From: an uncultured Alphaproteobacteria bacterium
GTDB taxonomy: Bacteria; Pseudomonadota; Alphaproteobacteria; Methylaequorales; Methylaequoraceae
DNA length: 64,000 nt
Direction of reading: 5' to 3'
Assembly: GCA_902550225.1 (NCBI GenBank)
Contig: CACCYL010000002.1
Span: forward strand, 84,089-148,088
Every line of letters starts with the position of its first letter. Position 1 is the stretch's first letter. This document shows positions 19,189-61,790 of this stretch, in pieces. Position numbers and translations under genes: made by a program. The notes beneath the pieces were generated by a model. The model was not told the DNA's origin, searched no databases, and saw only the letters and a program-made list of their open reading frames with translations.

Positions 19189-20078
19189 AAAAGAGAATAA
19201 TTGAGTCTTTCCCTGATTATCTCTACATACTTCTTTTCAATCTCAATTCCAAGATATCCTCTACCTAAATGTTTCGCAGCGAGCAGAGTTGTTCCAGAAC
19301 CAGCAAAAGGATCTATTACCACATTTTGAGTTCCTTCTGGAACAAGTATGCTTACTAATTTTTCCATTAATGATAGAGGTTTTACAGTACAATGCACATT
19401 GAACTCTTCCTTTTTGTCTCTTTGAATATTCTCTAAAATATTTGACTGAAATCCTCCATTCTTTAAAGTTGTATTGAAAACTCCAACTCCGTACTTCATT
19501 AATGTTTGTGAATAATTTTGTTCTAAAGGTTTTTGAACCAAGACAATGCCCTCCCATTCATTCCGAAAACAACTATGCCAACCCTGCCACCGATAATGTT
19601 CCTGGTAACCTTTACGTTTTAACTGAGATGCAGCGTTGTAACCCTTTGGGATGCCACTCGAACGTCGATACACAAGTATATCGCGAGCATAAAAACCTGC
19701 CTTTTCGAGGGCAACTTGGACATGCGCCAGTGTCCGGGTACTGTTAAATACAGCAACGGGACTTCCCGGTTTCAAGATTCTATAAAGTTCTTCTGACCAT
19801 TTCAGACACCACTCCTCATAATCAAGTATGTTTGACCGATTTTTATCATACCATCGCTTATTCCTTACCCCACCAGCAAGACCACTTCCGTAAGGTATGT
19901 TTTTCACTAATGTGTTACTTTTTTTGGACCTACTAATCCTTCGTTCAACTTCCTCAGTATCCCAATTTTTTCCGATAAATTCATAGTTATATGGAGGATC
20001 AGTGATACAAGCAGACACCGTATCAGGTTCAAATTGCTTCATGATCTTGATGCAATCTCCATTAAATATCTTATCCAA
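19185..20078 (-). CDS. DNA methyltransferase, beta-class N6A/N4C (DPPY ... FAGSGTT)
   Basis: Motif IV DPPY is N-terminal and motif I DPFAGSGTT is C-terminal. This is the ParB-less beta-class arrangement, as in M.RsrI and M.PvuII. GC content is markedly higher than in the surroundings. Confidence 0.85.
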   Translation of the reverse strand: MDKIFNGDCIKIMKQFEPDTVSACITDPPYNYEFIGKNWDTEEVERRISRSKKSNTLVKNIPYGSGLAGGVRNKRWYDKNRSNILDYEEWCLKWSEELYRILKPGSPVAVFNSTRTLAHVQVALEKAGFYARDILVYRRSSGIPKGYNAASQLKRKGYQEHYRWQGWHSCFRNEWEGIVLVQKPLEQNYSQTLMKYGVGVFNTTLKNGGFQSNILENIQRDKKEEFNVHCTVKPLSLMEKLVSILVPEGTQNVVIDPFAGSGTTLLAAKHLGRGYLGIEIEKKYVEIIRERLNYSLF

Positions 20079-20750: not shown

Positions 20751-20840
20751 GGAGAGTTGGCAGAGTGGTCGAATGCATCGGTCTTGAAAACCGACAAGGA
20801 TGCAAGTCCTTCTAGGGTTCGAATCCCTAACTCTCCGCCA
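20751..20840 (+). tRNA. tRNA-Ser (anticodon UGA)
   Basis: Cloverleaf folded by hand: acceptor GGAGAGT/ACTCTCC, anticodon stem TCGGT/ACCGA with loop CTTGAAA, a long variable arm, T arm TAGGG-TTCGAAT-CCCTA, discriminator G and an encoded CCA. Confidence 0.9.
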
Positions 20841-21172
20841 TTTTAGAGGTCATTAGTCGACAATATAGTCGACAACATTAAAAACCCTGTCCTCTGTAAC
20901 GCAGACTCACATTGACTTATAGAAGTTTTATTAGTTGAATAAACTAGTCTTGAAAACCGGCAAAGATGCAAGTCTTTCCAGGGTTCGAATCCCTGACTCT
21001 CCGCCACTTTTGGGGTCATTAGTCGACAACATAGTCGACAACACTAAAAACTCTATCCTCTGAAAGACAGACTCACATTGATTTGTAGAAAATATATTAG
21101 TTGAATAATCTGGTCTTGAAAACCGGCAAGGATGCAAGTCCTTCCAGGGTTCGAATCCCTGTCTCTCCGCCA
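20781..21172 (+). repeat. 166-bp tandem repeat (about 2.4 units). Each unit begins at the tRNA-Ser anticodon loop and contains the tRNA 3' half plus a GTCATTAGTCGACAAYATAGTCGACAACA spacer
   Basis: The period is exactly 166 bp (20781, 20947, 21113). The tRNA 3' halves recur at 20947-21006 and 21113-21172. Confidence 0.85.
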
Positions 21173-26322: not shown

Positions 26323-27357
26323 TTACACACGCCAAACTGTAACACCACCTTGTCTATCCAATCCAGCAAGTGCTTTATCATCTTGACGCCAATATAATTT
26401 TGAAACAGAATCACTTACACTAGTTTCACTTAATCCACTTTCTTCATTTTCAGATTTTAAGTCCCAAAGTACTACAACACCATCCCTTGATCCTGAAGCT
26501 AAATTCATACCACGATTTGAAAAAGCTAGTGATGTAATTGGTTTAGTGTGAAGTTTTAACGATAAAGGAGATGTACCCTCAGGCCCATTGCCTTTGAAAC
26601 TCCAAACTGTTACCTCTTCACTTCCCCCTGTGGCCAAGTAGCTTCCAGTTTCGTCAAAAGACAAAGCTGAGGGTTTTAGTGGATATCCAGACATCATTGA
26701 ATCTTGCTCTGTTGATCTGCGCCAAAAATGAATTGTATTATCTTGGCTTCCACATACGACTATGTCGCTGTTTGGGCTTAATACCATTGAAACTAAAGAC
26801 CCTTTCCATTCTAATTTCTGCTTTATTTTTCCTGAAATACCATCAAAAAAGGAAACACGCCCATAGCATGTTGTAGCTAGTTCTTTTTCGATGGACCAAG
26901 CTAAATTACTTACAGTACTATTATGACTGTCAGATTGCCACATTTCATTACCCTCTTTGGTGTATACATAAATGGTTCGAGAGCAAGAAAACGCCAGCAT
27001 TTCTCCATCTTGTGACCACGATAAATTTTCTATCCAACCATCACCCAAATCAATGACTTTTTCCTTTTTTTTTTGTTGAGCATTCCAAATAATAACCTTT
27101 CCATCCTGACCTCCTGTTGCGAACCTATCAATTAATGGATGGATTGCTGTTGAAAGAATACCACCTTCATGAACTTGTCCTTGAGACCATTTCATTTTAC
27201 CAGATGTACCATCAAAGACATATATCCCTCCAGCAGCATCACAAATTATGAGAGCCTCACCATTAAAGTTCCAACCCCCAGAAATAGCGTAATCATTTAC
27301 ATAGGCTTTCCAACCACTTCTGAGAATCTTTTGGGGTTGTGTTTCCATTATACTCAT
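26323..27357 (-). CDS. WD40-repeat beta-propeller protein
   Basis: Seven WD-like blades ending in W/D dipeptides (WNAQ, WRRS, WDLK, WRV). There is a 4-nt ATGA overlap with the upstream COG0523 gene. Confidence 0.75.
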   Translation of the reverse strand: MSIMETQPQKILRSGWKAYVNDYAISGGWNFNGEALIICDAAGGIYVFDGTSGKMKWSQGQVHEGGILSTAIHPLIDRFATGGQDGKVIIWNAQQKKKEKVIDLGDGWIENLSWSQDGEMLAFSCSRTIYVYTKEGNEMWQSDSHNSTVSNLAWSIEKELATTCYGRVSFFDGISGKIKQKLEWKGSLVSMVLSPNSDIVVCGSQDNTIHFWRRSTEQDSMMSGYPLKPSALSFDETGSYLATGGSEEVTVWSFKGNGPEGTSPLSLKLHTKPITSLAFSNRGMNLASGSRDGVVVLWDLKSENEESGLSETSVSDSVSKLYWRQDDKALAGLDRQGGVTVWRV

Positions 27358-28706
27358 ACAAGACAGTCCTCAAAATCCCTTCGCATTTCCTTTTCATCAA
27401 GGTTGCGTCCAATAAATACAAGCTGATTTCGTCGAGGTAAACTTCCCCAAGGGCGATCAGGTTTTCCACTAAAAATCATATGAACACCTTGAAAAACGAA
27501 TCTATTTGACTCTCCAGCAATACTTAGAAAACCTTTCATACGAAAAATATCTACTCCTTTGTCTCTAAGAAGTTTAGAAATCCAAGCTTGTAGTTTTTGT
27601 TCATCCAAATCACCGTCTTTTTCAATTGAAAAAGAACCAACTTCGTCATCATGTTCATGTTGTGCTACCCATGTTCTTTCTACTTCGACTGCAACTTCAT
27701 CGTTATTATTTACTTCAATTAACTTCATATTGAATTCTTCTGCTGTATGTTGAGCAAAAAGACCTAATTTTGTATCTTTCTCAATTTCAATATAAAATTC
27801 TTTTGGACCAGACGACTCAAGGTTTAAGTTGACATGTTTTCCTTTAGGAATTATTTCTTCTGGTTTGATTGATTTGGCGTCTTCAGCGTAAAGGCGAACG
27901 CAGCGCTCAGCAGAATTTCTCAAACTTACATCATCTGCATTCTGATCAGGCACAACAACAAGAGACATAGAAGGGTCAGGACCCTCAGACATAATGATTT
28001 TATATTTACCACATTTAGTTGGATAAATTCCCGTCCATTCAAATGGATATTCTGGTTCTAGAAAAGTAGGACGGCGTGTAAGAGCCTGGTCTAAATTAAA
28101 GGCACTTTTATCAAGGACAGAGTTAATTGGAACATTGGCCATTTCACTCCTAATGAATTTTGCCATTTTATTCATTTCCCGAAGACGGGCTTCTAAATTA
28201 TCAAGTTCTGAGTCTTTGACAAGATCTGTTTTGTTAAGAACAATAACGTCTGCAAATGCAATTTGTTCCGTACTTTCGTTACTTCTTCCAAGTTGTTGAT
28301 TTATATGAAATGTATCAACAAGAGTTATAATTCCATCAAGAGAAAACTCTGAACTTATCTCATCATCCATAAAAAAAGTTTGAGCCACTGGACCTGGATC
28401 TGCAAGACCAGTAGTCTCTACAACAACGTAATCAAATTTATCACGCCTTTTCATGAGGTTCCCAAGTACTCTAATTAAATCACCACGAACTGTACAACAA
28501 ATACAACCATTGGCCATCTCAAAGATTTCTTCCTCTGCATTTATTACAAGAGCTTGGTCAATACCAACCTCTCCAAATTCATTTTCAATCACAGCTATTC
28601 GTTTTCCGTGTTGCTCGCTTAAGATACGATTTAGTAAAGTGGTTTTACCTGAACCAAGAAAGCCAGTTAGAATGGTTACAGGAACCTTTTTAGATGAACT
28701 ATCCAT
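27354..28706 (-). CDS. COG0523 (CobW/ZigA/YjiA) metallochaperone GTPase, long form with an extended linker
   Basis: P-loop GFLGSGKTT, the family-defining metal-binding CxCC (GCICCT), and a CobW_C-like C-terminus. There is a Zur box upstream of the operon. Confidence 0.85.
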   Translation of the reverse strand: MDSSSKKVPVTILTGFLGSGKTTLLNRILSEQHGKRIAVIENEFGEVGIDQALVINAEEEIFEMANGCICCTVRGDLIRVLGNLMKRRDKFDYVVVETTGLADPGPVAQTFFMDDEISSEFSLDGIITLVDTFHINQQLGRSNESTEQIAFADVIVLNKTDLVKDSELDNLEARLREMNKMAKFIRSEMANVPINSVLDKSAFNLDQALTRRPTFLEPEYPFEWTGIYPTKCGKYKIIMSEGPDPSMSLVVVPDQNADDVSLRNSAERCVRLYAEDAKSIKPEEIIPKGKHVNLNLESSGPKEFYIEIEKDTKLGLFAQHTAEEFNMKLIEVNNNDEVAVEVERTWVAQHEHDDEVGSFSIEKDGDLDEQKLQAWISKLLRDKGVDIFRMKGFLSIAGESNRFVFQGVHMIFSGKPDRPWGSLPRRNQLVFIGRNLDEKEMRRDFEDCLV

Positions 28707-28887
28707 TTTCTTCTCCATTTAAAATTGTCATTCTTTTTCCTAGATCTCTGCGAAGTTTTGTAATTGCATATGGTTTCATATTTTTCCACTTTTTGCATTC
28801 CTCACGTGTTCTGCCACAACCAATACACCATGAATTTTTCCCTATAAATTTGCATATGTCAATACATGGACTTTTATTACGTTTCAT
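28699..28887 (-). CDS. DUF1289-family small Cys-rich protein (YdhL-like)
   Basis: SPCIDIC-x7-CIGCGRT-x-EE-x2-W matches the DUF1289 pattern. It is the first gene of the Zur-box operon. Confidence 0.65.
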   Translation of the reverse strand: MKRNKSPCIDICKFIGKNSWCIGCGRTREECKKWKNMKPYAITKLRRDLGKRMTILNGEENG

Positions 28888-28918
28888 ATGTAAAGTTCTA
28901 AATTTTATTTTTTATTAT

Positions 28919-28939
28919 TGTAATGTTATAACATAACAC
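28919..28939. promoter_or_regulatory. candidate Zur box (TGTAATGTTATAACATAACAC) in the divergent intergenic region
   Basis: Perfect palindrome TGTTATAACA within GTAATGTTATAACATAAC. Compare the proteobacterial Zur consensus GAAATGTTATAWTATAACATTTC. Confidence 0.55.
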
Positions 28940-28998
28940 TTTATAGTATAGTTTTATTAAATAAAAAAACATTATGTATTCAAAAACTTTATGTAAAC

Positions 28999-29355
28999 AT
29001 GGATTTAATTATTGAAAATCTTTTAGGCCAAGCAGGCGGAAATTTCAAAGGACTTATATTTGGTTTTGTTCACGTTGCGATAATGATTGTAGGTTATTAC
29101 ACTGGTTTTAGCATAAATAAATTTTTAAAGATTCTTTCCAATGGCTATGTTGCTGGGATCTTTGGCGTAGTTTTGTCTCATATCATTGCAGACATAATTG
29201 CTTGCTATTTAGATCCAGACCTTAGAAAAATGATTTTTGGAGTAGTTATTGGTGGTATAATTCCTCTTTTTTTCATACCAATATTAGAAAGATTTGTTGT
29301 AAAAAGTAAACAAAGTTTTTTAGATGAAACAAAAAAAGAGTTAAATAGATCCTGA
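28999..29355 (+). CDS. small membrane protein (3-4 TM), unknown function, downstream of a Zur box
   Basis: Hydrophobic segments, with Gly-rich GVVIGGIIP. Confidence 0.5.
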   Translation: MDLIIENLLGQAGGNFKGLIFGFVHVAIMIVGYYTGFSINKFLKILSNGYVAGIFGVVLSHIIADIIACYLDPDLRKMIFGVVIGGIIPLFFIPILERFVVKSKQSFLDETKKELNRS

Positions 29356-29484
29356 CTAAAGATCTATTATTAAAAAATTTTTTGTTGTTCTTTTCCTTGT
29401 CATTCCTCCAATATTTAGAAGCCACTGACTCTGACTATTTTGAGGCTTGATTTGATAATTTTTTACCAAAATAAATTTATTATT

Positions 29485-29506
29485 GAAATGTTATATTATA
29501 ACACTT
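29485..29506. promoter_or_regulatory. candidate Zur box (GAAATGTTATATTATAACACTT)
   Basis: It matches the Zur consensus GAAATGTTATAATATAACATTTC at 19 of 22 positions, and lies about 50 nt upstream of the second COG0523 gene. Confidence 0.65.
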
Positions 29507-29555
29507 AATATAAAATCCTTACTTTGATTTAGTTAAATTTTGTGGAGAATTTATA

Positions 29556-30770
29556 ATGAAAGTTTTAGATAAAAAACTTCCAGTCACATTATTGTCTGGA
29601 TTTCTTGGTGCTGGAAAAACAACCCTTTTAAATCACATTCTTAATAATCGACAAGGTCTAAAGGTTGCAGTTATTGTGAACGATATGAGTGAAGTAAATA
29701 TTGATGCAAATCTTGTTGAGCGTGGAGGTGGTAACTTATCTCAAACTGAAGAGAAACTTGTAGAAATGAGCAATGGATGTATTTGCTGTACTTTACGTGA
29801 AGATCTTTTAATTCAAGTTAGAGAGTTAGCAAATGAAAATAAATTTGATTACCTTCTTATAGAAAGTACTGGTATCTCTGAACCTTTGCCAGTAGCAACT
29901 ACTTTTGACTTTCGTGATGAGGATGGAGCTAGTTTATCTGACGTAGCAAAACTTGATACAATGGTGACTGTTGTGGATGCTGCAAATCTTATAAAAAATT
30001 ACAGCTCTACTGATTTTTTAAAAGATAAAGGAGAAAGTCTAGAAGATGATGAACGAACACTTGTTGATCTTCTTGTCGAACAGATTGAGTTTGCCAATGT
30101 TATTCTATTGAATAAAATTGATTTAATATCCTCTGAAGAATTAAAAACTGTTAATGCAATTATAAGTGGACTTAACACTGAGGCAAAGGTCTTTGAATGC
30201 TCTCATTCGACCGTGAATCTCAAAGAAGTTGTTGGTACTGGATTGTTTGATCTTAAAAAAGCTTACACTCATCCGTTATGGGCAAAAGAACTTTATAATT
30301 TTAAAGATCATCTTCCTGAAACAGAAGAGTATGGTATCACAAGTTTCGTATATTTAGCCCGCGAACCATTTGATCCATCAAAAATCTATAATTTCTTCAA
30401 TCAAGAATGGCCTGGTGTAATGAGATCAAAAGGCTTTTTTTGGATTTCGAGTCGACCTGAATTTATTGGTGAGGTTTCTCAGGCTGGTGCGTTTGTTCGT
30501 CATCAGGGAATTGGAAGATGGTGGACAACTGTACCGAAAGATCGTTGGCCAGAAGGACCTAATTTTGATGCTTTGATCGATAAATATTGGAATAAAGATT
30601 ATGGTGACCGTCGACAAGAAATAGTTTTTATAGGTTTAAAGTCTGAAATGAGTGAAAAGAACATTCGAGAGAGGCTAGACGCTTGTCTGATTAAGAACTA
30701 TCTTGATGATCCTAGTGCATATCATAAAGCTCTAGATCCCTTTCCAGCATGGTTTAAAAAAGTAGCTTAA
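29556..30770 (+). CDS. COG0523 (CobW/YjiA/ZigA) metallochaperone GTPase, standard length
   Basis: P-loop GFLGAGKTT, CxCC motif GCICCT and a CobW_C domain. Confidence 0.88.
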
Positions 30771-41872: not shown

Positions 41873-42280
41873 TTAAAAATTGCAAATGAATTTAATTTTC
41901 TCGAAGTTTTCACTCATTAATTTCGGATGAATCCATTCTGAATCATCTGATTCAGTGTTTAAATTTTTTTTATATTCAAATGTTCTTCCTCTACCCATAT
42001 TAGTCTTGTAATCAATTATAGTAATAACTTTAAATCTTTTATTTTTACAATCATACTTAGTATAAAACTTTGTACTTAGTTTTTCTTTTTTTTGTGCGAT
42101 TTTGTAATCAAACATACTCCAGATGTAAATAATATCATCGATTTTTTTGATTGATTCCATTTCAAAATATTCTGTAAAAGTTTTATGCGCACGGAATACT
42201 TTCCATTTTCCGTAACAACAGGAAAACGAAAAAAAATAAAGAAATAAAAAAATAAATTTATTTTTAAGAAAAATTTGCAT
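41873..42280 (-). CDS. secreted hypothetical protein
   Basis: Signal peptide MQIFLKNKFIFLFLYFFSFSCCYG. Confidence 0.45.
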   Translation of the reverse strand: MQIFLKNKFIFLFLYFFSFSCCYGKWKVFRAHKTFTEYFEMESIKKIDDIIYIWSMFDYKIAQKKEKLSTKFYTKYDCKNKRFKVITIIDYKTNMGRGRTFEYKKNLNTESDDSEWIHPKLMSENFEKIKFICNF

Positions 42281-42377
42281 GATTCAATTATTATTTTTAA
42301 TTTCTATCCTATAAAATATAGGTTGTCTTTTTAAGACATATTAATATTACATTGATATGAGTCTGGTAATTAGATCC

Positions 42378-42998
42378 TCAAATAACATTATTGAAACTTA
42401 ATAATCGAAATTGTCCACCTTTGTGTTTATTATCCTTTTTGGAAACCATTTCAAGAACACTATAGCTTTGATATGTAACTTCCAATCCAATTGCAAATTC
42501 AGGTTTAATTTGTAAAGCATGAGATAATATTGCCCTTATTGTACCTGCGTGTGTTATGATCAAAATACTCTGCCCAGCTTTTACTTTTAATTTTTTGAGC
42601 CAAATCTCTACTCTTTTACTCTGTTCTAGAAAACTTTCTCCATTTGGCGGTGAAAATTCAGGAGAAATAAATGAAAAATTATGTTTGTCTTCATTTTTAT
42701 TTATAAGTTTCCAAATTTCAGAAATTTTTTTTCCTGACCAATCTCCGAAGCTTTGTTCAACCAGATTGTTTTCTGTAATGATTTTTGAATACTGTTTATA
42801 TCTTGATAAAGCTTCTGCTGTTTGAATTGTTCGTTTTAAAGGACTCACATACCAATCACAATTATCTGGTAAACAAGTTGCCAATTTTTTAATTTTATTA
42901 TTTTTTATAATTGCATCTGGATTATGTTCAGAAAAAAAACCCGTAATTTGTTTTACAGGTGCATGCCGTATTAAAAATAATTTCGACGGTTTAATCAA
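42378..42998 (-). CDS. cobC: alpha-ribazole phosphatase (histidine phosphatase family)
   Basis: RHG-type motif (LIRHAP) and a catalytic His (ITHAGT). It is operonic with cobS and cobT. Confidence 0.7.
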   Translation of the reverse strand: MIKPSKLFLIRHAPVKQITGFFSEHNPDAIIKNNKIKKLATCLPDNCDWYVSPLKRTIQTAEALSRYKQYSKIITENNLVEQSFGDWSGKKISEIWKLINKNEDKHNFSFISPEFSPPNGESFLEQSKRVEIWLKKLKVKAGQSILIITHAGTIRAILSHALQIKPEFAIGLEVTYQSYSVLEMVSKKDNKHKGGQFRLLSFNNVI

Positions 42999-43780
42999 TT
43001 TACAACCAGAATCATTATAATATTTCCAAATAAAAACATTATATCTGTTAAGAAAGCGATTGCTCCTAATATGTCTCCGTTAATACCTCCTATGGCCTTT
43101 TTCGATTTTTTTCCAATTAAAAGTATTGTTAAGGTCATTAAGATTATGCCGAATAATATTCCATAGATATCTAACACAAACAATGTAGGTAATATCCAAG
43201 TTAAAGTAGCTATAAATAAACACTTATTTGAAATTTTTCCAACTATACTCGCTGTTTTTGCAAACTCTGAATTATTGAATAAGTTTCTTGCTATCATAAT
43301 AGAGAGTTTGCCGGTAGCAAATCCAATGGAAAAAATAGCAACTAATGGATACCCTGACTCGAATAAAGCTAATATTATTCCTAGTTTAAGCAAAATACCT
43401 AATACTAATGACATTACTCCATAGGTTCCAAGGCGACTATCATGAATAATTTTATCAATATTTCTAGGAGAGCCTCCTGCACCGAGGCCGTCTGCAGTAT
43501 CCGCTAATCCATCTTCATGAAAAGCGCCAGTAAGGAGAACACTTAATGTGATAGCTATAACACAAGATAAATAAACAGGAAGTCCCACTTGAATTAGTAT
43601 ATCCCCTGCACCACCAGATAAAATTCCTACTAAAAAACCAACTGATGGAAAAGACCAACTAGCTCTTGTTAAATCTGGTGCTTTTTTTGAGAAATAGGAC
43701 CATTTTACCGGTATTCTAGTAAAGAACATAAGTGTTGCAAAAAAATCCATTACATATTTATTTTTAAGAAGTAAATGCAT
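42995..43780 (-). CDS. cobS: adenosylcobinamide-GDP ribazoletransferase (cobalamin synthase)
   Basis: CobS-family N-terminus (FFATLMFFTRIPV) and polytopic membrane topology. Confidence 0.8.
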   Translation of the reverse strand: MHLLLKNKYVMDFFATLMFFTRIPVKWSYFSKKAPDLTRASWSFPSVGFLVGILSGGAGDILIQVGLPVYLSCVIAITLSVLLTGAFHEDGLADTADGLGAGGSPRNIDKIIHDSRLGTYGVMSLVLGILLKLGIILALFESGYPLVAIFSIGFATGKLSIMIARNLFNNSEFAKTASIVGKISNKCLFIATLTWILPTLFVLDIYGILFGIILMTLTILLIGKKSKKAIGGINGDILGAIAFLTDIMFLFGNIIMILVVN

Positions 43781-43782
43781 AA

Positions 43783-44805
43783 TTAAATTTTTTTACTTAT
43801 CCCTGCTTCTGAAAACGTCGACATTTTGTTGTGAGTGGTCAAAGCTGCTCTTATTATCAAACTTGCTACTACTGCTCCGCTTCCCTCACCAAGTCTCATG
43901 TTTAAGTTAAGTATAGGCTTTTTTTTAAGATGAGAAATTACTCCTGAATGACCTGGTTCAGAAGATTGGTGAGAAATTAAACAATGATCCAATATATTCT
44001 TTTTAAAAAGAGTTAGAGTAGCAGCAGATACAGTTGTAATAAAACCATCCAATAAAACAGGTATACCTTTGACCCTTGCTGCGATTACTGATCCTGCAAT
44101 TGCTGCCATTTCTCTTCCACCAAATGCCTCAAAGATTTTACCAACAGTTTTAAAATTCTTACCATGTAACTTCAATCCACTCTTAATAATAGAAATTTTA
44201 TGTTTAAGTTTTTGTTTAGAAATGCCCGTACCTAAACCTGTCCATTTTTCAACAGATTCATTAAAAAGTGCGCATGAAATAGCAGTTGCTGCTGAGGTAT
44301 TAGATATACCCATTTCTCCCAATATTAACAAATCACAATCTTTTGAAACAGAATCAAATCCTAATTGCATTGCTTCAATTATCTCGCTTTGTTCCATTGC
44401 TTTTTCTTTTGAAAAATCCTTAGTAGGTGTTTCAAGCTTTATTGGAATAACTGATAATTTTACTTTAGCTAAATTACATAGTTGGTTAATTGCAGCTCCT
44501 CCATTTTTAAAGTTAGCAACCATTTGCTTTGTTACTTCTGCAGGATAAGCAGACACTTTTTTATTTGCTACACCATGATTAGCAGCATAAATGATGCATT
44601 GAAAACTATCCATTTTAGGTTTTTTTCTTTTTTGCCAACCAGCCATCCAAATAGCATAATCTTCTAATCGACCTAAACTCCCAATTGGTTTTGTAAGTTT
44701 ATTTTGATGTTTTCTAGCCAAATTAGCATAATATTCATGGAACGATTTAAGTGGGACTTTGCCATTATTATTTAGCAAAATTTTAATAATATTATCATTA
44801 GACAT
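43783..44805 (-). CDS. cobT: nicotinate-nucleotide--dimethylbenzimidazole phosphoribosyltransferase
   Basis: CobT signature (GEMGISNTSAATAI, GEGSGA). Confidence 0.85.
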   Translation of the reverse strand: MSNDNIIKILLNNNGKVPLKSFHEYYANLARKHQNKLTKPIGSLGRLEDYAIWMAGWQKRKKPKMDSFQCIIYAANHGVANKKVSAYPAEVTKQMVANFKNGGAAINQLCNLAKVKLSVIPIKLETPTKDFSKEKAMEQSEIIEAMQLGFDSVSKDCDLLILGEMGISNTSAATAISCALFNESVEKWTGLGTGISKQKLKHKISIIKSGLKLHGKNFKTVGKIFEAFGGREMAAIAGSVIAARVKGIPVLLDGFITTVSAATLTLFKKNILDHCLISHQSSEPGHSGVISHLKKKPILNLNMRLGEGSGAVVASLIIRAALTTHNKMSTFSEAGISKKI

Positions 44806-44975
44806 ATTTAAATATCAAATATACTCTTTAAAATTAAGCTATATTACTTTTGTAATTGATAGTCTAGTTTTTAATAAAAGCTGTAATAAATTAGTCCAAT
44901 ATTGGTATTCATAATTGAAAAGTATTAAAATTAACTTTTTAGTTTTTTAAATTAGTAAATATTAAAACCTTAATT

Positions 44976-46034
44976 TTGAGAGCAAAATTGCGAAGATTTT
45001 TATTTTATCCATTATTTATTATTTTTACTTATCTATTTTACGTTTATCCCTTTAGAACTCTTATTTCTATGATTACCGATGACGAAATCTTAAATTTCAA
45101 TTCGTTTGTTGTAAGTTTATTTTTTTCAGCGTTAATAATTTATAACTCAAAATTAAAAAATACTTTTTTATTTTCTAAATTGTTAATTTATGAAGGATTA
45201 GGAATTGGGTTCATAAGTTTTTGGATAGTTAATTTGGGATTATTTATTGACATTTTTAATATCATAGAATCTTACAACTTAGGTATAGTCTGCATTCTAA
45301 TTATATTGATTCTGACATTATTAAGTTTTTATAATGGTAGTAAAATTAACATTAAAAAATTAAATGTTTATTCTTCAAAATTAAAAAAACCTTTAAAATT
45401 AATTTTTCTCAGTGATATTCATTTAGGAACAAATACTATTGAGCACTTAGAGAAAATTAATAAAAAAATAATTAAGCTTGAATTTGATTTTATATTGGTG
45501 GGAGGAGATTTAATTGATTCGAGTTCATTTGAATTAAAAGATTTAAAGATTTTAAAAAATTTAAAAAAACCAATTTATTTTATAAGTGGTAATCATGAGT
45601 ATTACATCAAAAACTATCAAGAGAAACTAGGTAAGTTAAATGAATACAACATTAACTTTTTAGATAATAAATCAATAAAATATAAAAATATGAATATTAT
45701 TGGGGTTAGTGATAATCAAAGTACATTAAATCAAACTGAAACTGTTAATAAATTTTATAAGCCAAACTTATTTAATTTGGTAGTTGTGCATAAACCTACC
45801 TTATGGGAATTTATAAATAAACAGATAGATTTGACTTTATCAGGACATACACATAATGGACAAATAGTACCTTTTAACTTTTTAGTAAAACTGAGATTTA
45901 AAAATATTTATGGGTTATACGAAAAATTTCAGTCTAAACTTTATGTTTCGTGTGGCGTTGGTTGTTGGGGGCCAAGAATGAGGCTTGGAAGTACAAATGA
46001 AATTGTTTTACTATCAATTAGTAATCAAGCATAA
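44976..46034 (+). CDS. membrane-anchored metallophosphoesterase (calcineurin-like)
   Basis: LSDIHLG, GGDLID and GNHE motifs with an N-terminal TM region. The annotated start is TTG; an internal ATG start is possible. Confidence 0.7.
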   Translation: MRAKLRRFLFYPLFIIFTYLFYVYPFRTLISMITDDEILNFNSFVVSLFFSALIIYNSKLKNTFLFSKLLIYEGLGIGFISFWIVNLGLFIDIFNIIESYNLGIVCILIILILTLLSFYNGSKINIKKLNVYSSKLKKPLKLIFLSDIHLGTNTIEHLEKINKKIIKLEFDFILVGGDLIDSSSFELKDLKILKNLKKPIYFISGNHEYYIKNYQEKLGKLNEYNINFLDNKSIKYKNMNIIGVSDNQSTLNQTETVNKFYKPNLFNLVVVHKPTLWEFINKQIDLTLSGHTHNGQIVPFNFLVKLRFKNIYGLYEKFQSKLYVSCGVGCWGPRMRLGSTNEIVLLSISNQA

Positions 46035-46114
46035 CTAGATACCTTTCTATATTAAAACTTTGTCGACTAAATTTTAATAAATTAACTTTTTCTTATTTTT
46101 TAAAAGAAGACTAT

Positions 46115-46498
46115 TTAGTAAAAAATTAAGTCAGCTAAAAAAGCAAAGAAAAAACCTGTGATATAAACTACAAACGAAAAAGTCAATATAACGGAATTTG
46201 TTGACCTTAATTTCAAACATATTTTAGCTTCTGCTGGGTTTGTTGGACATGAAGCATTATTTCTTCTCCATGCCATATAACATGATAAAGCCAACATAAA
46301 ACCTGCTAATATAAAGACATATAATTTATATTTTGATAGAACAACAATCCACGGAAATATTGATACAATGCTAATTAAAGTTGTACCCAATCCAACAGTC
46401 ACAAGCAGAGCTGGTAAAGCACAACAAACTAGCGTACTTAAACTTGTAAATAAACTTAATATTGGTGCAAACAATTCTTTATAGAAATTATTTAACAT
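46115..46498 (-). CDS. MerT-like metal-transport inner membrane protein
   Basis: Three TM helices with a vicinal Cys pair in TM1 (LVCCALPALL) and a second Cys pair in the cytoplasmic loop (SCP...ICL), which is the MerT topology. Confidence 0.55.
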   Translation of the reverse strand: MLNNFYKELFAPILSLFTSLSTLVCCALPALLVTVGLGTTLISIVSIFPWIVVLSKYKLYVFILAGFMLALSCYMAWRRNNASCPTNPAEAKICLKLRSTNSVILTFSFVVYITGFFFAFLADLIFY

Positions 46499-46799
46499 TT
46501 TTTATTTCTCTGACGTCATAACCAGAATCCTTAATCATTTCAGTGATTTTTTCATAACTTAATTTTTGATTTTCTTTAAAATTAATAGTAATCAACATAT
46601 TTTGTAAATTTACTTTTATACCTGCAACTGATTTTTGTTTTGAAAATATTTTTTCAATTGAACGAGCACAAAAATCACACACAAGTCCATTAACGTATAC
46701 GTACAAAATATCACCATTGTATTGTTCATCCGATAGAATTTTACTGCTGTTAAACAATACAAATTGTAAAATAAACAAATAGATAATAATTTTTTTCAT
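46488..46799 (-). CDS. periplasmic heavy-metal-associated (HMA) domain protein, MerP/CopZ-like
   Basis: Signal peptide MKKIIIYLFILQFVLFNSS and the HMA motif GLVCDFC. The start is taken at the internal ATG at 46799. Confidence 0.6.
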   Translation of the reverse strand: MKKIIIYLFILQFVLFNSSKILSDEQYNGDILYVYVNGLVCDFCARSIEKIFSKQKSVAGIKVNLQNMLITINFKENQKLSYEKITEMIKDSGYDVREIKNVK

Positions 46800-46809
46800 T
46801 TTTGCTCCT

Positions 46810-47457
46810 CTAAAATCTTTTAATGAAGTTAAACATAAAGTCTTTGTAGTTATTAAGACCAAACTCTGCTAAATAATCTCCTTTAAAAACTCTCAACATT
46901 GGAGTAAATGTCAAGTTTTTACGACTTCCAGGCATATGATTGGCTTGAAGCATTATCCAAGTATGTAAATATCCATATTCAGCCAAATAAGGAGCCACTC
47001 CAATTCTAAATTGTTGTGAAAAAAATCTATCTATTGAAGATGCATAAGTAGCTTGATTCTGATAACTTGTAAAAAAACTTCTATCTTCCCAATCAAATAA
47101 AATGCCTGTGAAAAGGGATGGTTCAAATTTATTTTCAAAAGCTTCATAATTACTATTTGCTAAACCTATTCCGTTCTTTAAATAAAAATTTGTTTGCGAC
47201 TTAGGTTTATTTAGTCTTTTTATGAGATAATTTAATTGAAGTCCATGAAATTGCCATTCTTTTTCTCTCCAATATTCTGCTCTATAACCTATTGAATAAT
47301 CAATTGATGGACTATAATGCAAATGAAAACTATGTTTACTAAAATCATTTGCCTGCATTAATGTCCAGCCTCCAGGATATGAAATTGGTCTAGCATTAAT
47401 ATCTTTTATGACTATAAAAGTGCACAAAAGAACTATTTTGCATAAAAATATCTTCAT
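46810..47457 (-). CDS. secreted hypothetical protein, aromatic-rich (possible beta-barrel)
   Basis: Signal peptide MKIFLCKIVLLCTFIVIKDINA. Confidence 0.45.
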   Translation of the reverse strand: MKIFLCKIVLLCTFIVIKDINARPISYPGGWTLMQANDFSKHSFHLHYSPSIDYSIGYRAEYWREKEWQFHGLQLNYLIKRLNKPKSQTNFYLKNGIGLANSNYEAFENKFEPSLFTGILFDWEDRSFFTSYQNQATYASSIDRFFSQQFRIGVAPYLAEYGYLHTWIMLQANHMPGSRKNLTFTPMLRVFKGDYLAEFGLNNYKDFMFNFIKRF

Positions 47458-47520
47458 CTTTTCTCCTAATAATCAGAAATAAATTCAAGACAAACTTTGT
47501 CTCAAAACTTTGAAATAAAA

Positions 47521-47856
47521 TTAGGAAAAAAGTTTTGGCGGGGGTGGTCTTAGTAAAGGGTTTAGGGAATCAAATGTAAACGTTAAGTTATCAAAAAAAG
47601 AATTAGCGATTTGAGCATCTAAAATATAGTCAACTTGAAATGTATTTATTTGAGTATAATAACACTCACAATTAAAACATACGTCTTCAACATCATTTGA
47701 TTGAGAATGACATGATTTGTTAGAGTGAGCATTATTTGTTTCATTAAGTTGAGAATATTTTTTATCTAAACAATACGAAATAACTTTAGCTGAGATCGTC
47801 AAACTAGACAGACTAAATATTAAAACACTTAAAATAAAAAATTTTACGTGACTCAT
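47521..47856 (-). CDS. small secreted Cys/His-rich protein
   Basis: Signal peptide followed by CHSQSNDVEDVCFNCECYY and a PPPP tail. It is divergent from the Zur-box promoter. Confidence 0.45.
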   Translation of the reverse strand: MSHVKFFILSVLIFSLSSLTISAKVISYCLDKKYSQLNETNNAHSNKSCHSQSNDVEDVCFNCECYYTQINTFQVDYILDAQIANSFFDNLTFTFDSLNPLLRPPPPKLFS

Positions 47857-47909
47857 AATTACAAACTATTAAAAGTTTTAAAAAAATCAATGATTTTATT
47901 TGATTGGGG

Positions 47910-47941
47910 TTGACATAGAACAAAGTGTTATAATATAACAT
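47910..47941 (+). promoter_or_regulatory. sigma70-like promoter (TTGACA -35, TAATAT -10) overlapping a Zur box (GTGTTATAATATAACAT)
   Basis: TTGACA at 47910-47915, then a 15-nt spacer and TAATAT at 47931-47936, which lies inside the box. The palindrome TGTTATAATATAACA at 47927-47941 overlaps the -10 and sits 36 nt upstream of the TBDT start codon. Confidence 0.65.
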
Positions 47942-47976
47942 AAATTAATATCAACATCTTATTTAATGGAAAATCA

Positions 47977-49941
47977 ATGTATAAAATAGTTACCTTCGTC
48001 TTGACTGTATTACTTGTAGCTAATGTAAACGCTGAAAAGTTAGAATCTATATTTGTTGCACCTGATGTATTTATAACATCTAAAATTAAGCCGAGTACTG
48101 AATATGAAAGTGATAGGGGTAATATTTTATATGATTCTCATGAACTAGAAAAAAGCAGACAATACTCTATTGGTCAGATGCTCAAAGATTTACCAGGAAT
48201 TGCTTCACAAGGTCTTGGTAACGCTTCACGTCCAATAATCAGGGGTCTTGGTAATTCGCGAGTTAAAATTTTACAAAACAGTTCTTCACTCGGTGATGTT
48301 TCCGAATTTGGTGAGGATCATATTGTTGGATATGATCCATTATTAATTGATAAAATAGAAATTATTAAGGGGCCCGGTACGTTACTTTATGGAAACAATG
48401 GTTTTGCTGGAGTTGTAAATATTATAAACCCTTTAATTGCAGTAGATAAGCCTCTTTCTGACGAAAACGTCCAATTAGGTTTTGGATACAAGACCTCAGG
48501 TGGAGAGTTGGGAACAGCATTAAAACTTGGTAAATCTGTGGACAATTTTACTGTTAGAGGTTCTGGAAGTTTTGTAAGTGCAGGACCTTACGATTTAGCA
48601 AATGTTTCAACTAAGCAAGCAAATTCATCAAAGTTCATGACATCTGGTGGCGTTGGAATAACATACAATGATGGTCAGAACCATTTTGGAGTTTCTTTGG
48701 ACAAACTTGAAGCTGTATATCAAAATCCTGGTCCTGAAGGTGAAGAAAATATGACATCGCTTAATCCTACAAGAAATACAATAAATTTTGATTCTTCACT
48801 TGCATTAAATTATTTAATCTTTGAAAAGTTTAACCTAGAAGGCACTGTTTCTGAATATAATCATGCTGAAAGAACAGGCGATGGGAACAATCATAATATA
48901 ACATTTTTCAATGATATATATGAAATAAAAACATCACTGAATCACAAATCTCTATTCAATCAAAATGAAGAAGGATTAATAGGTTTTCATTTTATGAATA
49001 AAAATCAAGGTGCAACAGGAGCTGAGGAAGGTCATTTAACTCCAACGAAGACCAATAGTTTTGCTTTATTTGCTCTCGAAAAATTAAAATTTGATTTATT
49101 TGATTTAGATCTTGGTGGTCGAATTGAATCTGTAAATTTGAAAACAACACAGCATGAGCAAGGTTTTTTCCCTGCTGCATTTTCTTCCACTGTCAAAAGA
49201 GAAATCATTCCAAACAATAGTGTATTTTTAGGTTTTGATTTTACACAAAGAGCACCGAATGCTGTCGAACTATTCGCAGACGGTCCTCACCACGCTCTTG
49301 AAAATGTTGAGACAGGTAACGTGAACTTAGAAAAAGAGAGTTCTTACAATGTATCACTTGGATATAATTATGATGAAAATCTAAATAAATTAAAAATTGA
49401 AGCTTATTATAACTACATTAATGATTTTATTGCTGCAGATAGAAACGGTAATACTCAAAACGTTGAAGGTGAAGATTTTAATGTTGTTATTCACGATCAA
49501 TATAATGCATTATTTACTGGAGTAGAATTAACTGGTCAGTATGGCATAACGAAATTGGATGATTTTGATTTCCTTGCTAATTTTGTAGGGGAATTTTTGA
49601 AGGGTTACAGAACATCCAATGACAAGGCTATAACTAGAATTCCACAATCAAAAGTAAATGTTGGTTTACAACTCATTAATGAGGAATGGGATACTAATCT
49701 TAAATATTATCATTATTTTGATAAAGAATTCACAGGTCCCTTTTATACAAGAACAGGTGGTCACTCAAGATTAGATTTTGATCTCACAAAAGATTTCATG
49801 TACTCAGATTTATCTGGCCATGCAATGTTTAGTGTAACCAATCTTCTGAATACAGTTGGTCGTGATCATCTTGAGGCAAAAAAGGGCCAAGTTCAATTAC
49901 CCGGTAGGAGTTTTAATTTTAATTTAAAGCTATTCTATTAA
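47977..49941 (+). CDS. TonB-dependent outer-membrane receptor, candidate zinc (ZnuD-like) transporter
   Basis: Signal peptide, plug region, and a 22-strand barrel ending in aromatic residues (LKLFY). A Zur box lies in its promoter. Confidence 0.8.
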   Translation: MYKIVTFVLTVLLVANVNAEKLESIFVAPDVFITSKIKPSTEYESDRGNILYDSHELEKSRQYSIGQMLKDLPGIASQGLGNASRPIIRGLGNSRVKILQNSSSLGDVSEFGEDHIVGYDPLLIDKIEIIKGPGTLLYGNNGFAGVVNIINPLIAVDKPLSDENVQLGFGYKTSGGELGTALKLGKSVDNFTVRGSGSFVSAGPYDLANVSTKQANSSKFMTSGGVGITYNDGQNHFGVSLDKLEAVYQNPGPEGEENMTSLNPTRNTINFDSSLALNYLIFEKFNLEGTVSEYNHAERTGDGNNHNITFFNDIYEIKTSLNHKSLFNQNEEGLIGFHFMNKNQGATGAEEGHLTPTKTNSFALFALEKLKFDLFDLDLGGRIESVNLKTTQHEQGFFPAAFSSTVKREIIPNNSVFLGFDFTQRAPNAVELFADGPHHALENVETGNVNLEKESSYNVSLGYNYDENLNKLKIEAYYNYINDFIAADRNGNTQNVEGEDFNVVIHDQYNALFTGVELTGQYGITKLDDFDFLANFVGEFLKGYRTSNDKAITRIPQSKVNVGLQLINEEWDTNLKYYHYFDKEFTGPFYTRTGGHSRLDFDLTKDFMYSDLSGHAMFSVTNLLNTVGRDHLEAKKGQVQLPGRSFNFNLKLFY

Positions 49942-49947
49942 TAAAAT

Positions 49948-50313
49948 ATGTTTAAGTATTACTCTTCATACACATTGTTATGGATAGGCCTAACACATCT
50001 GTTGTGCTGTGGTTTGCCTTTGACGTTATCATTTGTTTCATTATCTTCAAATGCATTATTTTTGGACTCACTCCTTTTAAACTCTGAATTATTAGAAGCT
50101 GCTGAACCATATCTCTTTGCAATTACGACGCTTATATTTTTATTAATAATTTCTTTTGAGATCTACAATAAAAAAATAAAGTGCCAAGATGATGAATGTG
50201 ATACTGAAAAAGAATGCAGTACGACCACTAAAAAAATTAAGACCAATCTTATTCTCGCAAGTATTCTTTATACTCTCAATAGTTCAATCTTTTTATCAGA
50301 AGTTATCCTCTGA
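49948..50313 (+). CDS. second MerT-like small membrane protein
   Basis: TM1 with LLCCGLPL and a loop bearing KCQDDECDTEKEC, the same architecture as the protein at 46115. Confidence 0.5.
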   Translation: MFKYYSSYTLLWIGLTHLLCCGLPLTLSFVSLSSNALFLDSLLLNSELLEAAEPYLFAITTLIFLLIISFEIYNKKIKCQDDECDTEKECSTTTKKIKTNLILASILYTLNSSIFLSEVIL

Positions 50314-50316
50314 TTT

Positions 50317-50958
50317 ATGATTTTAAATTGTGAAAATATGAAATCCTTAATGGACTTCAAACATAATAACCATCAATTAGCAATTTTGAATCGTCAAACT
50401 CCCGAGAATTCCAATGTTTTCTTTAGTGAATTAAACATAACTTCTTTTTCAACTTCAGGTTATGTTTCATTAGAGAATAGTTTAAATGACATTAGCAAGC
50501 TTACAGAAGAAAAACTTCCATCAAAAATTAGGAAAAACTTATTTTTTGAAAAATGGTTAAATGATATGAGTGAAATTTGTAAAATGTTTTGTTTATTTCA
50601 AGAAAAAGATAAAATAAGTTTTTGGTTGGGATCCGAGAGAGGTTGTAAACGTTTTCATGTTGATATGGTCCCTTATAGATGTTTAATAACCTATTCCGGA
50701 CAAGGTACAGAATTACTACCTGATAATGCAGCAGACAGGAATGCTTTTATTAGTGGAAAACCAAATGAAAATATAATTAAAGACAGATCAGCGATAAGAT
50801 ATTTAAATAAATGGGATGTTGCAATTTTTCGTGGTGGAAAACATGGAATTTTACATCGAACTCCAGAGTCAGCACTAAATGATAGATCTTCAATTTTAAT
50901 GAGGCTTGATGATTCTTCTTTTTTAGAGCAAATAGAAAAAATAAACAATGTTAATTAA
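50317..50958 (+). CDS. hypothetical cytoplasmic protein (possibly DUF1826-like)
   Basis: No clear motif. The start codon lies 4 nt after the stop of the upstream ORF. Confidence 0.45.
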   Translation: MILNCENMKSLMDFKHNNHQLAILNRQTPENSNVFFSELNITSFSTSGYVSLENSLNDISKLTEEKLPSKIRKNLFFEKWLNDMSEICKMFCLFQEKDKISFWLGSERGCKRFHVDMVPYRCLITYSGQGTELLPDNAADRNAFISGKPNENIIKDRSAIRYLNKWDVAIFRGGKHGILHRTPESALNDRSSILMRLDDSSFLEQIEKINNVN

Positions 50959-56708: not shown

Positions 56709-58844
56709 GTGGAGATTTATATGGATGATTATTCCATAAAAAAACATTTTGGTGGTTGCCCTCACGACTGCCCCGATACGTGCGCAATGATTTATGAAGT
56801 TGCGGGCAACAAACTTCTTAGCGTTAGAGGAAACCCTGATCACCCTATGACTGACGGCGTACTTTGTGTCAAGCTCAAAGACTACGAAAAAAGACACTAC
56901 CATCCTGATCGTTTATTATATCCTCATAAACGTGTTGGAAAAAAGGGAAAGAAAGAATTTGAAAGAATTTCTTGGGATGAAGCACTAGAAACAATAACCT
57001 TAAAATGGAAGTCTCTAATTAATGAATATGGGCCTGAATCAATCATTCCGTATAGTTATTTGGGAAATCAAGGTTTAGTTCATGGTTTAAATGGAGGTGA
57101 TTCTTTCTTTAATGCTCTTGGCGCGACTGTTTGTGAGAGAACTTTTTGTGGGGAAGGTTCATGTACAGCTTGGTTAACCACGATAGGCCCAACAGCTGGC
57201 TTAGATCCGGAAAGTTACATCCACAGTAAATACATTGTTATTTGGGCTTGTAACAGTGTAAGTACCAATCTTCATCATTGGACAATCATTCAAGAAGCTA
57301 AAAAAAGAGGAGCCAAAGTTGTAGTAATTGATTCATATAAATCTAGAACTGCTAAACAAGCTGATTGGCATATCGAACCTATCCCTGGTTCAGACGGAGC
57401 TTTGGCAGTAGCCATGATAAATCATATTATTTATAACGATCTAACAGATATGGATTACATAAATAATCACACTAATGGATTTGAAGAGTTAAAAGAGCAT
57501 GTTAAAGATAAAGATCCTAAATGGGCGTCTAAAATAACTGGAATTAGTGAAGAAGAAATTAAAAAATTGGCTCAAGAAATTGCTACAGTTCAACCAGTTG
57601 GAATAAGAATTGGAGTTGCACTTGAGAGACATTATGGAGGTGGGCAGACGATTAGAGCTGTTACCTGCATACCTGCATTAACTGGTGCATGGAAACATGT
57701 TGGTGGAGGAATCACTCAATTTCCAGTTTGGGAACATCCGTACAAATTTGATGTTATATGCAGACCGGATTTGATACCTGAAGGTACAAGAGTTGTAAAC
57801 GCTCTTCAGATTGGAAGAGCCTTACTAGGGGAAAATATAGATAAGGACAAACCAATTATGTCCATGATGTGCTGGAACGCTAATCCTGTTACTCAAGCAG
57901 CCGAAACAGAGAAAATAATTAAAGGTTTAAAGAGAGAAGATTTATTCTTAGTTTCTGCTGAACATTTTATTTCTGACACAGCATCTTACGCAGATATTCT
58001 TCTACCCGCCACAATGGGTGCAGAACATGAAGATATGATATTATCTTGGGGTCACTTATACCTAACATACAATGAGAAATGTGTTGATGCTCCAGGAGAA
58101 GCTTTACCAAATTATGAAATATTCAGGAGGTTAGCAAAAAAGATGGATTTAAAGCAAGATCAATTCAGTTGGAGTGATGAAAAATGTTTAGAAAACTATG
58201 TAGATTGGTCAGCACCAGCATGTGAGGGAATTACTCTTGAAAAATTGAAGGAAAAAGGGTTTGCAAGATTAAATGTTGGTTGCAAAGATACACGAGCACC
58301 CCACAAAGATGGTAAGTTCCCTACAGAATCAGGTAAATGTGAGTTTATTCTAAAAGATGTGAAAAATTTTGTTGCCGGTCCGTTCAGACAAATGTACGAG
58401 GATTATCAACCAGGTCAAGACCTCCCTCCTCTTCCGGATTATGTTCCTCAACTTGAGTCAAAACAAACTAACCCGCAACTTGCCAAAAAATATCCTTTAA
58501 ACGTAATAACTCCAAAAAGTCATGCGTTTTTAAATTCGTGTTATGCAAACATGACGGATAAGCAGAGGGTTCAAGGAGACCAATTTGTTCTTATAAGCGA
58601 AATTGATTCAAAACAAAGAAATATTAAAGATGGTGATAATGTCAAAGTATTTAATGACAGAGGTTCCTATAAAGGTGTTGCTAAAATAACATCTGATGTT
58701 TCGTCAGGTATTGTCGTTTCAACGCTCGGATATTGGAGACAACTCAACGATGGAACAGTTAACAGTATAAGCTCAGCTAATTTAGCAGATATGGGAAATG
58801 CTCCAACTTTCTCAGATAATCTAGTTGAAGTAATAAAAATATAA
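56709..58844 (+). CDS. molybdopterin (bis-MGD) oxidoreductase, cytoplasmic, substrate unknown
   Basis: N-terminal Fe-S Cys cluster (CPHDCPDTC ... C) and MopB-family length and domains. No Tat signal. Confidence 0.75.
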   Translation: MEIYMDDYSIKKHFGGCPHDCPDTCAMIYEVAGNKLLSVRGNPDHPMTDGVLCVKLKDYEKRHYHPDRLLYPHKRVGKKGKKEFERISWDEALETITLKWKSLINEYGPESIIPYSYLGNQGLVHGLNGGDSFFNALGATVCERTFCGEGSCTAWLTTIGPTAGLDPESYIHSKYIVIWACNSVSTNLHHWTIIQEAKKRGAKVVVIDSYKSRTAKQADWHIEPIPGSDGALAVAMINHIIYNDLTDMDYINNHTNGFEELKEHVKDKDPKWASKITGISEEEIKKLAQEIATVQPVGIRIGVALERHYGGGQTIRAVTCIPALTGAWKHVGGGITQFPVWEHPYKFDVICRPDLIPEGTRVVNALQIGRALLGENIDKDKPIMSMMCWNANPVTQAAETEKIIKGLKREDLFLVSAEHFISDTASYADILLPATMGAEHEDMILSWGHLYLTYNEKCVDAPGEALPNYEIFRRLAKKMDLKQDQFSWSDEKCLENYVDWSAPACEGITLEKLKEKGFARLNVGCKDTRAPHKDGKFPTESGKCEFILKDVKNFVAGPFRQMYEDYQPGQDLPPLPDYVPQLESKQTNPQLAKKYPLNVITPKSHAFLNSCYANMTDKQRVQGDQFVLISEIDSKQRNIKDGDNVKVFNDRGSYKGVAKITSDVSSGIVVSTLGYWRQLNDGTVNSISSANLADMGNAPTFSDNLVEVIKI

Positions 58845-59630: not shown

Positions 59631-61790
<2,160 letters not shown>

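Follow-up and report, generated by a model that had tools for sequence, protein, structure and literature searches.

A probable cobT-cobS-cobC nucleotide-loop assembly operon without a cobalamin riboswitch in a marine TMED127 ("Methylaequorales") methylotroph

Background and summary

A 64,000-nt stretch of DNA from an uncultured alphaproteobacterium (positions 84,089-148,088 of contig CACCYL010000002.1, GenBank assembly GCA_902550225.1; hereafter the window) carries on its minus strand three contiguous genes of the CobT, CobS and CobC families, which assemble the nucleotide loop, or lower ligand, of cobalamin (vitamin B12). Here, we present an analysis of these genes, their upstream region, their host and their counterparts in related genomes. 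Our reading, to which we give a probability of roughly 85 %, is that the predicted proteins belong to a functional nucleotide-loop assembly operon lacking a riboswitch, and that their host is a marine methylotroph with a streamlined genome, of the order TMED127 ("Methylaequorales"). Nothing about the enzymes, the logic of the operon or its lack of a riboswitch is new; the new element is the host.

Going by what is established for the biochemistry of these families, CobT would move the phosphoribosyl group of nicotinate mononucleotide onto dimethylbenzimidazole (DMB), giving alpha-ribazole-5'-phosphate, which the membrane protein CobS would couple with adenosylcobinamide-GDP into adenosylcobalamin-5'-phosphate, and the histidine phosphatase CobC would then strip the phosphate from this product. 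The three genes would be co-transcribed and translationally coupled, and the finished cofactor may feed the adenosylcobalamin-dependent mutases of the ethylmalonyl-CoA (EMC) pathway predicted for the lineage.

Operon structure and gene identities

The three open reading frames (ORFs) are intact and lie as one compact unit at 42378-44805 (Table 1), with a gap of 2 nt between cobT and cobS and an overlap of 4 nt (TTGA) between cobS and cobC. An initial annotation, made from the letters of the window, had placed cobT, cobS and cobC contiguously on the minus strand at exactly these positions, and both this layout and the three gene identities proved right, with the caveat that the name cobC follows from the best match, the catalytic residues and the kept coupling to cobS, and not from a curated cut-off. 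The overlap of the cobS stop with the cobC start (TTGA/ATGA) is kept in TMED127 as well as in SAR116, as checked in the window and in the related loci L013, L014 and L010, and this points to translational coupling. Pairwise ratios of nonsynonymous to synonymous substitution rates against seven orthologous loci were 0.13-0.22 for cobT, 0.13-0.31 for cobS and 0.19-0.34 for cobC, and thus all three genes are maintained by purifying selection.

Families were assigned with Pfam and NCBIfam/TIGRFAM profile searches, applying the NCBIfam equivalog cut-offs. CobT matches PF02277 with 362.5 bits and exceeds the cut-offs of both the TIGR03160 equivalog (361.3 against 319.3) and NF000996 (369.6 against 306), and its closest solved structures, those of Thermus thermophilus CobT (1wx1/1j33, E 1.6e-50), align over the full length. 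Its segment MRLGEGSGAVVA pairs with LALGEGTGAVLA of T. thermophilus CobT 1wx1, with LGEGSG opposite LGEGTG, and the glutamate of this LGEGxG segment is one that we take to be the catalytic base, as in the CobT of S. enterica. CobT is present as a single copy in the window, with no tandem ArsAB-like pair among the ORFs, and DMB is the predicted base. For CobS, the scores are 136.7 bits against 23.2 for PF02654 and 119.9 against a cut-off of 110 for TIGR00317, and the narrower NF0012xx sub-models score under their own cut-offs. The protein carries the motif HEDGLADTADG at residues 88-98, and its Kyte-Doolittle windows of at least 1.6 cover about residues 47-89, 117-164, 187-226 and 233-261, as in a polytopic membrane protein, which is how CobS is described in PMC8092220.

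The third protein belongs to branch 1 of the histidine phosphatases (PF00300, His_Phos_1, 99.6 bits). Its top NCBIfam model is TIGR03162 (ribazole_cobC), with 93.5 bits over model positions 1-175 of 176, and its top PDB matches are the CobC entries 3hjg, 6nru and 6e4b. The residues R11, H12, R56, E81 and H150 are invariant in five orthologues and align to the CobC structures 3hjg and 6nru, and the motif reads RHA in place of the usual RHG. Further, cobC directly follows cobS in all alphaproteobacterial loci that reach past cobS (L002 ends before that point). Based on the best NCBIfam and PDB matches, the invariant catalytic residues and the kept 4-nt coupling to cobS, we regard this protein as a putative CobC-type phosphatase.

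Leader region and riboswitch searches

The 170-nt region upstream of cobT had been described as AT-rich and devoid of a B12-box, and this description stands: its GC content is 15.9 %, compared with 29.9 % for the window, and it contains neither GCCACTG nor any B12-box-like sequence. Two exact GCCACTG sequences elsewhere in the window are no more than expected by chance, and Rfam, searched permissively at those sites, gave no match. The proposed absence of a cobalamin riboswitch was likewise borne out when the Rfam cobalamin models (RF00174 and its clan) were run, as searches of the whole window, both with the gathering threshold and with E<=1, and of 42000-46200 with E<=10 found nothing, nor was such a riboswitch found by Rfam in 11 related loci. 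When E. coli K-12 was put through the identical procedure as a control, the riboswitch of btuB was recovered with 87 bits and the cobU-cobS-cobT region gave none. Salvage of cobinamide by E. coli has been established by experiment (PMC6461909), and since the nucleotide-loop operon of this species is riboswitch-free in the same test, the lack of a riboswitch upstream of such an operon is normal.

The predicted fold of the leader is no better than that of shuffled sequences (z = -0.82), promoter-like matches in the region occur at chance level only, and an alignment of the leader (A1) shows no conservation from one TMED127 genus to another. The latter argues against an unrecognised regulatory RNA, and a novel leader RNA, which we considered as a candidate, was rejected on the grounds of both the non-significant fold and the missing cross-genus conservation. 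Expression of the operon would probably be constitutive or otherwise independent of a riboswitch.

Host lineage and demand for B12

The exact CobT protein of the window was found on the 1,184,557-bp contig grub_3__contig_5718 in ENA, which shares 98.3 % nucleotide identity with the window over 21 kb. This contig belongs to a metagenome-assembled genome (MAG) with 29.7 % GC, 1531 genes and an estimated completeness of about 73-77 %, which GTDB classifies as c__Alphaproteobacteria; o__TMED127; f__TMED127; g__GCA-2691245; s__sp902617375. The window is also 95.5-97.7 % identical to single-amplified genomes (SAGs) of the GORG-Tropics collection that are labelled "uncultured Alphaproteobacteria", with a lower value of 92.3 % for L007, and 97.4 % identical to the MAG CM1_5m.P40, the TMED127 reference in Glass et al. 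2025, where the order was renamed "Methylaequorales" (PMC12542740). The initial annotation had taken the host for a SAR11-type organism, and this placement has to be abandoned, as the near-identical MAG falls in o__TMED127 and not in Pelagibacterales; the guess is explained by one older paper, in which CM1_5m.P40 was tagged as "SAR11".

TMED127 is a deep-branching order of obligate methylotrophs of the surface ocean, living in oligotrophic water and having genomes of about 1.5 Mb (PMC12542740). Their predicted carbon assimilation route is the EMC pathway, which holds two adenosylcobalamin-dependent mutases (PMC9925536), and the TMED127 SAG AG-892-F10 includes mcmA (methylmalonyl-CoA mutase) and mcmB/meaB among the ~300 of its 1535 genes covered here (Table S5 of PMC12542740). 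Since the predicted EMC pathway needs B12-dependent mutases, genes for finishing B12 are to be expected in this host and pose no paradox. The view that the operon stands out because its lineage is B12-independent therefore loses its premise, as TMED127 is predicted to use B12-dependent mutases.

The triad in related genomes

Besides the two ENA copies (L001 and L002), the same triad was found in seven genomes (L003-L009), with protein lengths of 338-340, 261 and 206-207 aa and CobT identities of 95-99 %, and in two further TMED127 genomes, on contigs of 1.24 and 1.46 Mb, with CobT identities of 70 % (L012) and 67 % (L013). Outside TMED127, it occurs in a SAR116 single-cell genome (L010; 64 % CobT identity) and in two other marine alphaproteobacterial MAGs (about 63 %). 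The gene downstream of the triad in TMED127 encodes a Zn-peptidase, from which the triad is separated in the window by an Adhesin_E gene, and the upstream gene varies, being a metallophosphoesterase in the window, an SSF transporter in L012 and a UPF0114 gene in L013. The flanks outside TMED127 are unrelated to the TMED127 neighbourhood. In 12 related alphaproteobacterial loci, the +-10 kb around cobT contain no other cobalamin gene.

In the SAR116 genome (L010), the triad stands directly after formate-dehydrogenase-like genes, a NuoF-like gene and one for a 918-aa molybdopterin subunit. In L015 (GCA_028409035, about 63 % CobT identity), genes for phosphoenolpyruvate (PEP) carboxylase and an HpcH/HpaI-family, malyl-CoA-lyase-like protein are located 4-8 kb upstream of the triad (1846-5826), and these serine-cycle-type genes hint that this genome may also be that of a methylotroph. 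Small Adhesin_E-family (PF16747) lipoprotein-like genes are found in the window (41873-42280, minus strand) and twice in L013 (8708-9112 and 14482-14808), and as their positions round the cob triad vary between TMED127 genomes, they seem to form a small family that is mobile or undergoes rapid rearrangement.

Remaining pathway genes and other features of the window

To cover the rest of the pathway, essentially every ORF of at least 110 aa in the window was scanned against Pfam and NCBIfam, and Pfam assignments already available for the central 21 kb were added. This window scan gave no cobU/cobP, cbiB/cobD, cobQ, adenosyltransferase, bluB, cbiZ, cbiR-like, btu, corrin-ring or B12-dependent-enzyme genes. 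When E. coli CobU was searched in all six frames (E<=10), the sole match fell in the Clostridia locus L011, where cobU directly follows cobT, and the window and the alphaproteobacterial loci gave none. Among the ~300 of 1535 genes covered for AG-892-F10, there is no match to dimethylbenzimidazole, ribazole, cobinamide, adenosyltransferase, precorrin, cobyr, cobN, cobP/cobU or bluB, which is uninformative.

Two candidates from the surroundings of the operon were considered and rejected. The divergent membrane metallophosphoesterase (44976-46034) is not retained as a new cobamide-remodelling phosphodiesterase, since the upstream neighbour differs in L012 and L013, and the TonB-dependent receptor, the DUF1826 protein and the pair of COG0523 zinc-type chaperones annotated as "CobW" are not retained as a system for corrinoid or cobalt uptake, since the best matches are to zinc-homeostasis proteins of the ZnuD, ZigA and YjiA types. 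Judged by their profile matches, the clusters at 26323-30770 and 46115-50958 are predicted metal-homeostasis genes and not a corrinoid system, and they could be mistaken for B12 genes.

Table 1. Coordinates of the cob operon, its leader and the metal-related genes in the window.
Feature	Position	Strand	Length	Remarks
cobT	43783-44805	minus	340 aa	nicotinate-nucleotide--dimethylbenzimidazole phosphoribosyltransferase (predicted)
cobS	42995-43780	minus	261 aa	adenosylcobinamide-GDP ribazoletransferase (cobamide synthase), polytopic membrane protein (predicted)
cobC-type histidine phosphatase	42378-42998	minus	206 aa	TTG start; putative alpha-ribazole-5'-P / cobalamin-5'-P phosphatase
cobT leader / divergent intergenic region	44806-44975	minus	170 nt	15.9 % GC
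WD40 beta-propeller protein	26323-27357	minus		
YjiA/YeiR-like COG0523 GTPase	27354-28718	minus		"CobW" protein; followed by the WD40 gene
ZigA-like zinc chaperone (COG0523)	29556-30770	plus		585 bits against a cut-off of 600
HMA/CopZ-like protein	46488-46862	minus		adjoins a small membrane protein
ZnuD-like TonB-dependent receptor	47977-49941	plus		ZnuD 218 bits; BtuB models match the plug domain only
DUF1826	50317-50958	plus		

The TonB-dependent receptor is intact in the window, with 654 aa, and was called with 414 aa in the 98.3 %-identical, nanopore-polished MAG (L001, 5582-6826), so that this MAG may contain a frameshift, an error of assembly or a pseudogene of that strain. In the 70 % relative (L012), the COG0523 and WD40 genes are found less than 10 kb from cobT, via a rearrangement.

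Elsewhere in the window, the plus strand at 20751-21172 holds three tandem copies of the 3' part of a tRNA-Ser(TGA) with a period of 166 nt and identities of 84-93 %; ARAGORN calls intact tRNA-Ser(tga) genes at 20751-20840 and 21085-21172, and a partial copy lies between them at 20946-21006. Just upstream are a DNA methylase gene (19185-20078, minus strand) and small unknown ORFs. These repeats may have arisen by tandem duplication of the tRNA gene or may be scars left by repeated integration. Additionally, genes for a molybdopterin oxidoreductase (56709-58844, plus strand, 711 aa) and a KatG-like catalase-peroxidase (59631-61769, minus strand, 712 aa) are located towards the window's 3' end.

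Comparison with known systems

The window and E. coli/Salmonella share the CobT, CobS and CobC families, with the same predicted chemistry, and the E. coli proteins match by tblastn at about 30-32 % identity. E. coli cobU-cobS-cobT also resembles the window operon in having no upstream cobalamin riboswitch. The gene order differs, being T-S-C in the window and U-S-T in E. coli, with cobU absent from both the window operon and the whole 64-kb window, and cobC lies within the operon and is coupled to cobS in the window, whereas it is unlinked in E. coli/Salmonella. The presence of nucleotide-loop genes without corrin-ring genes in the sequence examined recalls the "Cbi salvager" (cobinamide salvager) class of Shelton et al. 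2019 (PMC6461909), in which membership is defined by the absence of ring genes from the whole genome and the presence of the remaining loop genes, and the sequence compared here comprises the 64-kb window and the +-10-kb loci.

Also comparable are the CobS-dependent remodelling of pseudocobalamin by Vibrio cholerae (Ma et al. 2020, cited through PMC7733943) and the COBT/COBS/COBC set of remodelling microalgae (Helliwell et al. 2016; bioRxiv 10.64898/2026.08.07.738727), as these three families form a stand-alone set, which in the present host has a putative role. The habitat, rich in cyanobacterial pseudocobalamin, is shared with these remodelling systems. Closest in organisation are the triads of SAR116 (Puniceispirillales) and other marine Alphaproteobacteria, which have identical gene order, lengths and coupling and CobT proteins of 62-64 % identity, although their flanks are unrelated: these genomes are of a different order, and the neighbours of the triad are formate-dehydrogenase-like genes, hut genes, or PEP carboxylase together with an HpcH-family gene.

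Competing explanations and the source of the corrinoid

Several points weigh against a functional nucleotide-loop assembly operon as the explanation. With its 93.5 bits, the third protein stays under the curated TIGR03162 cut-off of 162.9 and thus fails the CobC equivalog test, and its substrate is the one predicted for the family. The window and loci hold no cobU/cobP, adenosyltransferase, cbiB/cobD, bluB or corrinoid transporter that would account for the activated corrinoid required by CobS, the evidence for B12-dependent enzymes is published and comes from another TMED127 genome and not from the present one, and no canonical terminator in the 97-nt spacer 3' of cobC marks where the transcription unit ends. 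The low score of the third protein, which also matches, though less well, models of phosphoserine phosphatase and of phosphoglycerate-mutase-like proteins, could further be taken to mean that the three genes are misassigned paralogues unrelated to cobamides. This we regard as very improbable, since CobT and CobS exceed their equivalog cut-offs, the three genes are syntenic, coupled and co-conserved, and the top PDB matches of the third protein are CobC entries.

Assuming that the operon does assemble the nucleotide loop, its corrinoid could be imported, by salvage or remodelling, or made de novo, and we consider these two possibilities roughly equally likely. In the latter case, the triad would be the end segment of a full aerobic-type pathway encoded elsewhere on the chromosome, and the host would be a B12 producer. 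This is a credible alternative, though one we rate at somewhat under even odds. It is in line with the predominance of predicted producers (n=4209) over Cbi salvagers (n=1734) in Shelton et al. (PMC6461909), with the growth of an EMC-based model methylotroph without added B12 and the active B12 production of cultured EMC methylotrophs (PMC9925536), and with the aerobic cobaltochelatase-like cobS/cobT listed for AG-892-F10 (PMC12542740); the obligate need of central carbon assimilation for B12 would also be expected to favour self-sufficiency. However, TMED127 genomes are very small, at about 1.2-1.5 Mb, neither the 64-kb window nor the fetched loci nor the ~300 of 1535 genes covered for AG-892-F10 include a ring gene, and chelatase-like annotations occur in pathway-free genomes as well (PMC6461909). 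Classical salvage of cobinamide, as in E. coli, would instead mean that incomplete corrinoids are imported and acted on by a CobU/CobP-type enzyme and an adenosyltransferase encoded elsewhere, before the operon finishes them. We hold this to be a tenable account with a lesser chance of being correct. Such salvage is experimentally established and assigned to 15 % of bacterial genomes (PMC6461909), it fits a streamlined, oligotrophic genome and a riboswitch-less nucleotide-loop operon resembling E. coli cobUST, and among the reef oligotroph MAGs of the data set containing the 98.3 %-identical MAG, the nucleotide-loop module M00122 reaches 40.7 %, compared with about 7 % for the ring modules M00924/M00925. 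Yet cobU/cobP is adjacent in none of the 12 alphaproteobacterial loci, while it immediately follows cobT in the Clostridia locus and shares an operon with cobS and cobT in E. coli, and no receptor of the BtuB type is found close by, the TonB-dependent receptor in the neighbourhood being ZnuD-like.

The import of complete cyanobacterial pseudocobalamin, with its adenine swapped for DMB by the triad without CobU or CbiZ, appears unlikely to us, and the points in its favour are circumstantial. The V. cholerae version of remodelling does involve CobS and no CbiZ and acts on pseudocobalamin, according to PMC7733943, and remodelling algae encode COBT, COBS and COBC, with COBT required in Chlamydomonas (bioRxiv 10.64898/2026.08.07.738727). 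In the same direction point the self-contained nature of the triad in the unrelated neighbourhoods of TMED127, SAR116 and other marine Alphaproteobacteria, the absence of CobU from all fetched alphaproteobacterial loci, and the oligotrophic surface water in which TMED127 lives; on the other hand, neither a DMB source (bluB) nor a corrinoid importer was identified in the window or loci. Isolated cobT-cobS units also occur in de novo producers, which counts against remodelling by the triad alone. As a variant, the CobT-CobS-CobC set may produce alpha-ribazole, a building block that could be exchanged. More generally, one could propose that TMED127 and the SAR116-type lineages sharing the triad lack both the ring pathway and CobU and swap the lower ligand of cyanobacterial pseudocobalamin for DMB via the stand-alone triad, a generalisation which we regard as speculative and rather improbable.

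Implications for marine methylotrophs

TMED127 ("Methylaequorales") is a recently recognised, transcriptionally very active methanol oxidiser of oligotrophic surface oceans, and among the papers found that mention this lineage, there was no discussion of its B12 supply or cobamide metabolism. The nucleotide-loop assembly operon described here concerns a host in which the cofactor is predicted to serve central carbon assimilation. If the exchange of pseudocobalamin lower ligands were true, the EMC carbon assimilation of an abundant open-ocean methylotroph would depend on corrinoids of Prochlorococcus/Synechococcus and on external DMB or alpha-ribazole. With two adenosylcobalamin-dependent mutases in the predicted assimilation route, the B12 economy of TMED127, be it de novo synthesis, cobinamide salvage or pseudocobalamin remodelling, could limit how fast methanol is turned over in the sea and link this turnover to producers of corrinoids among cyanobacteria or Thaumarchaeota.

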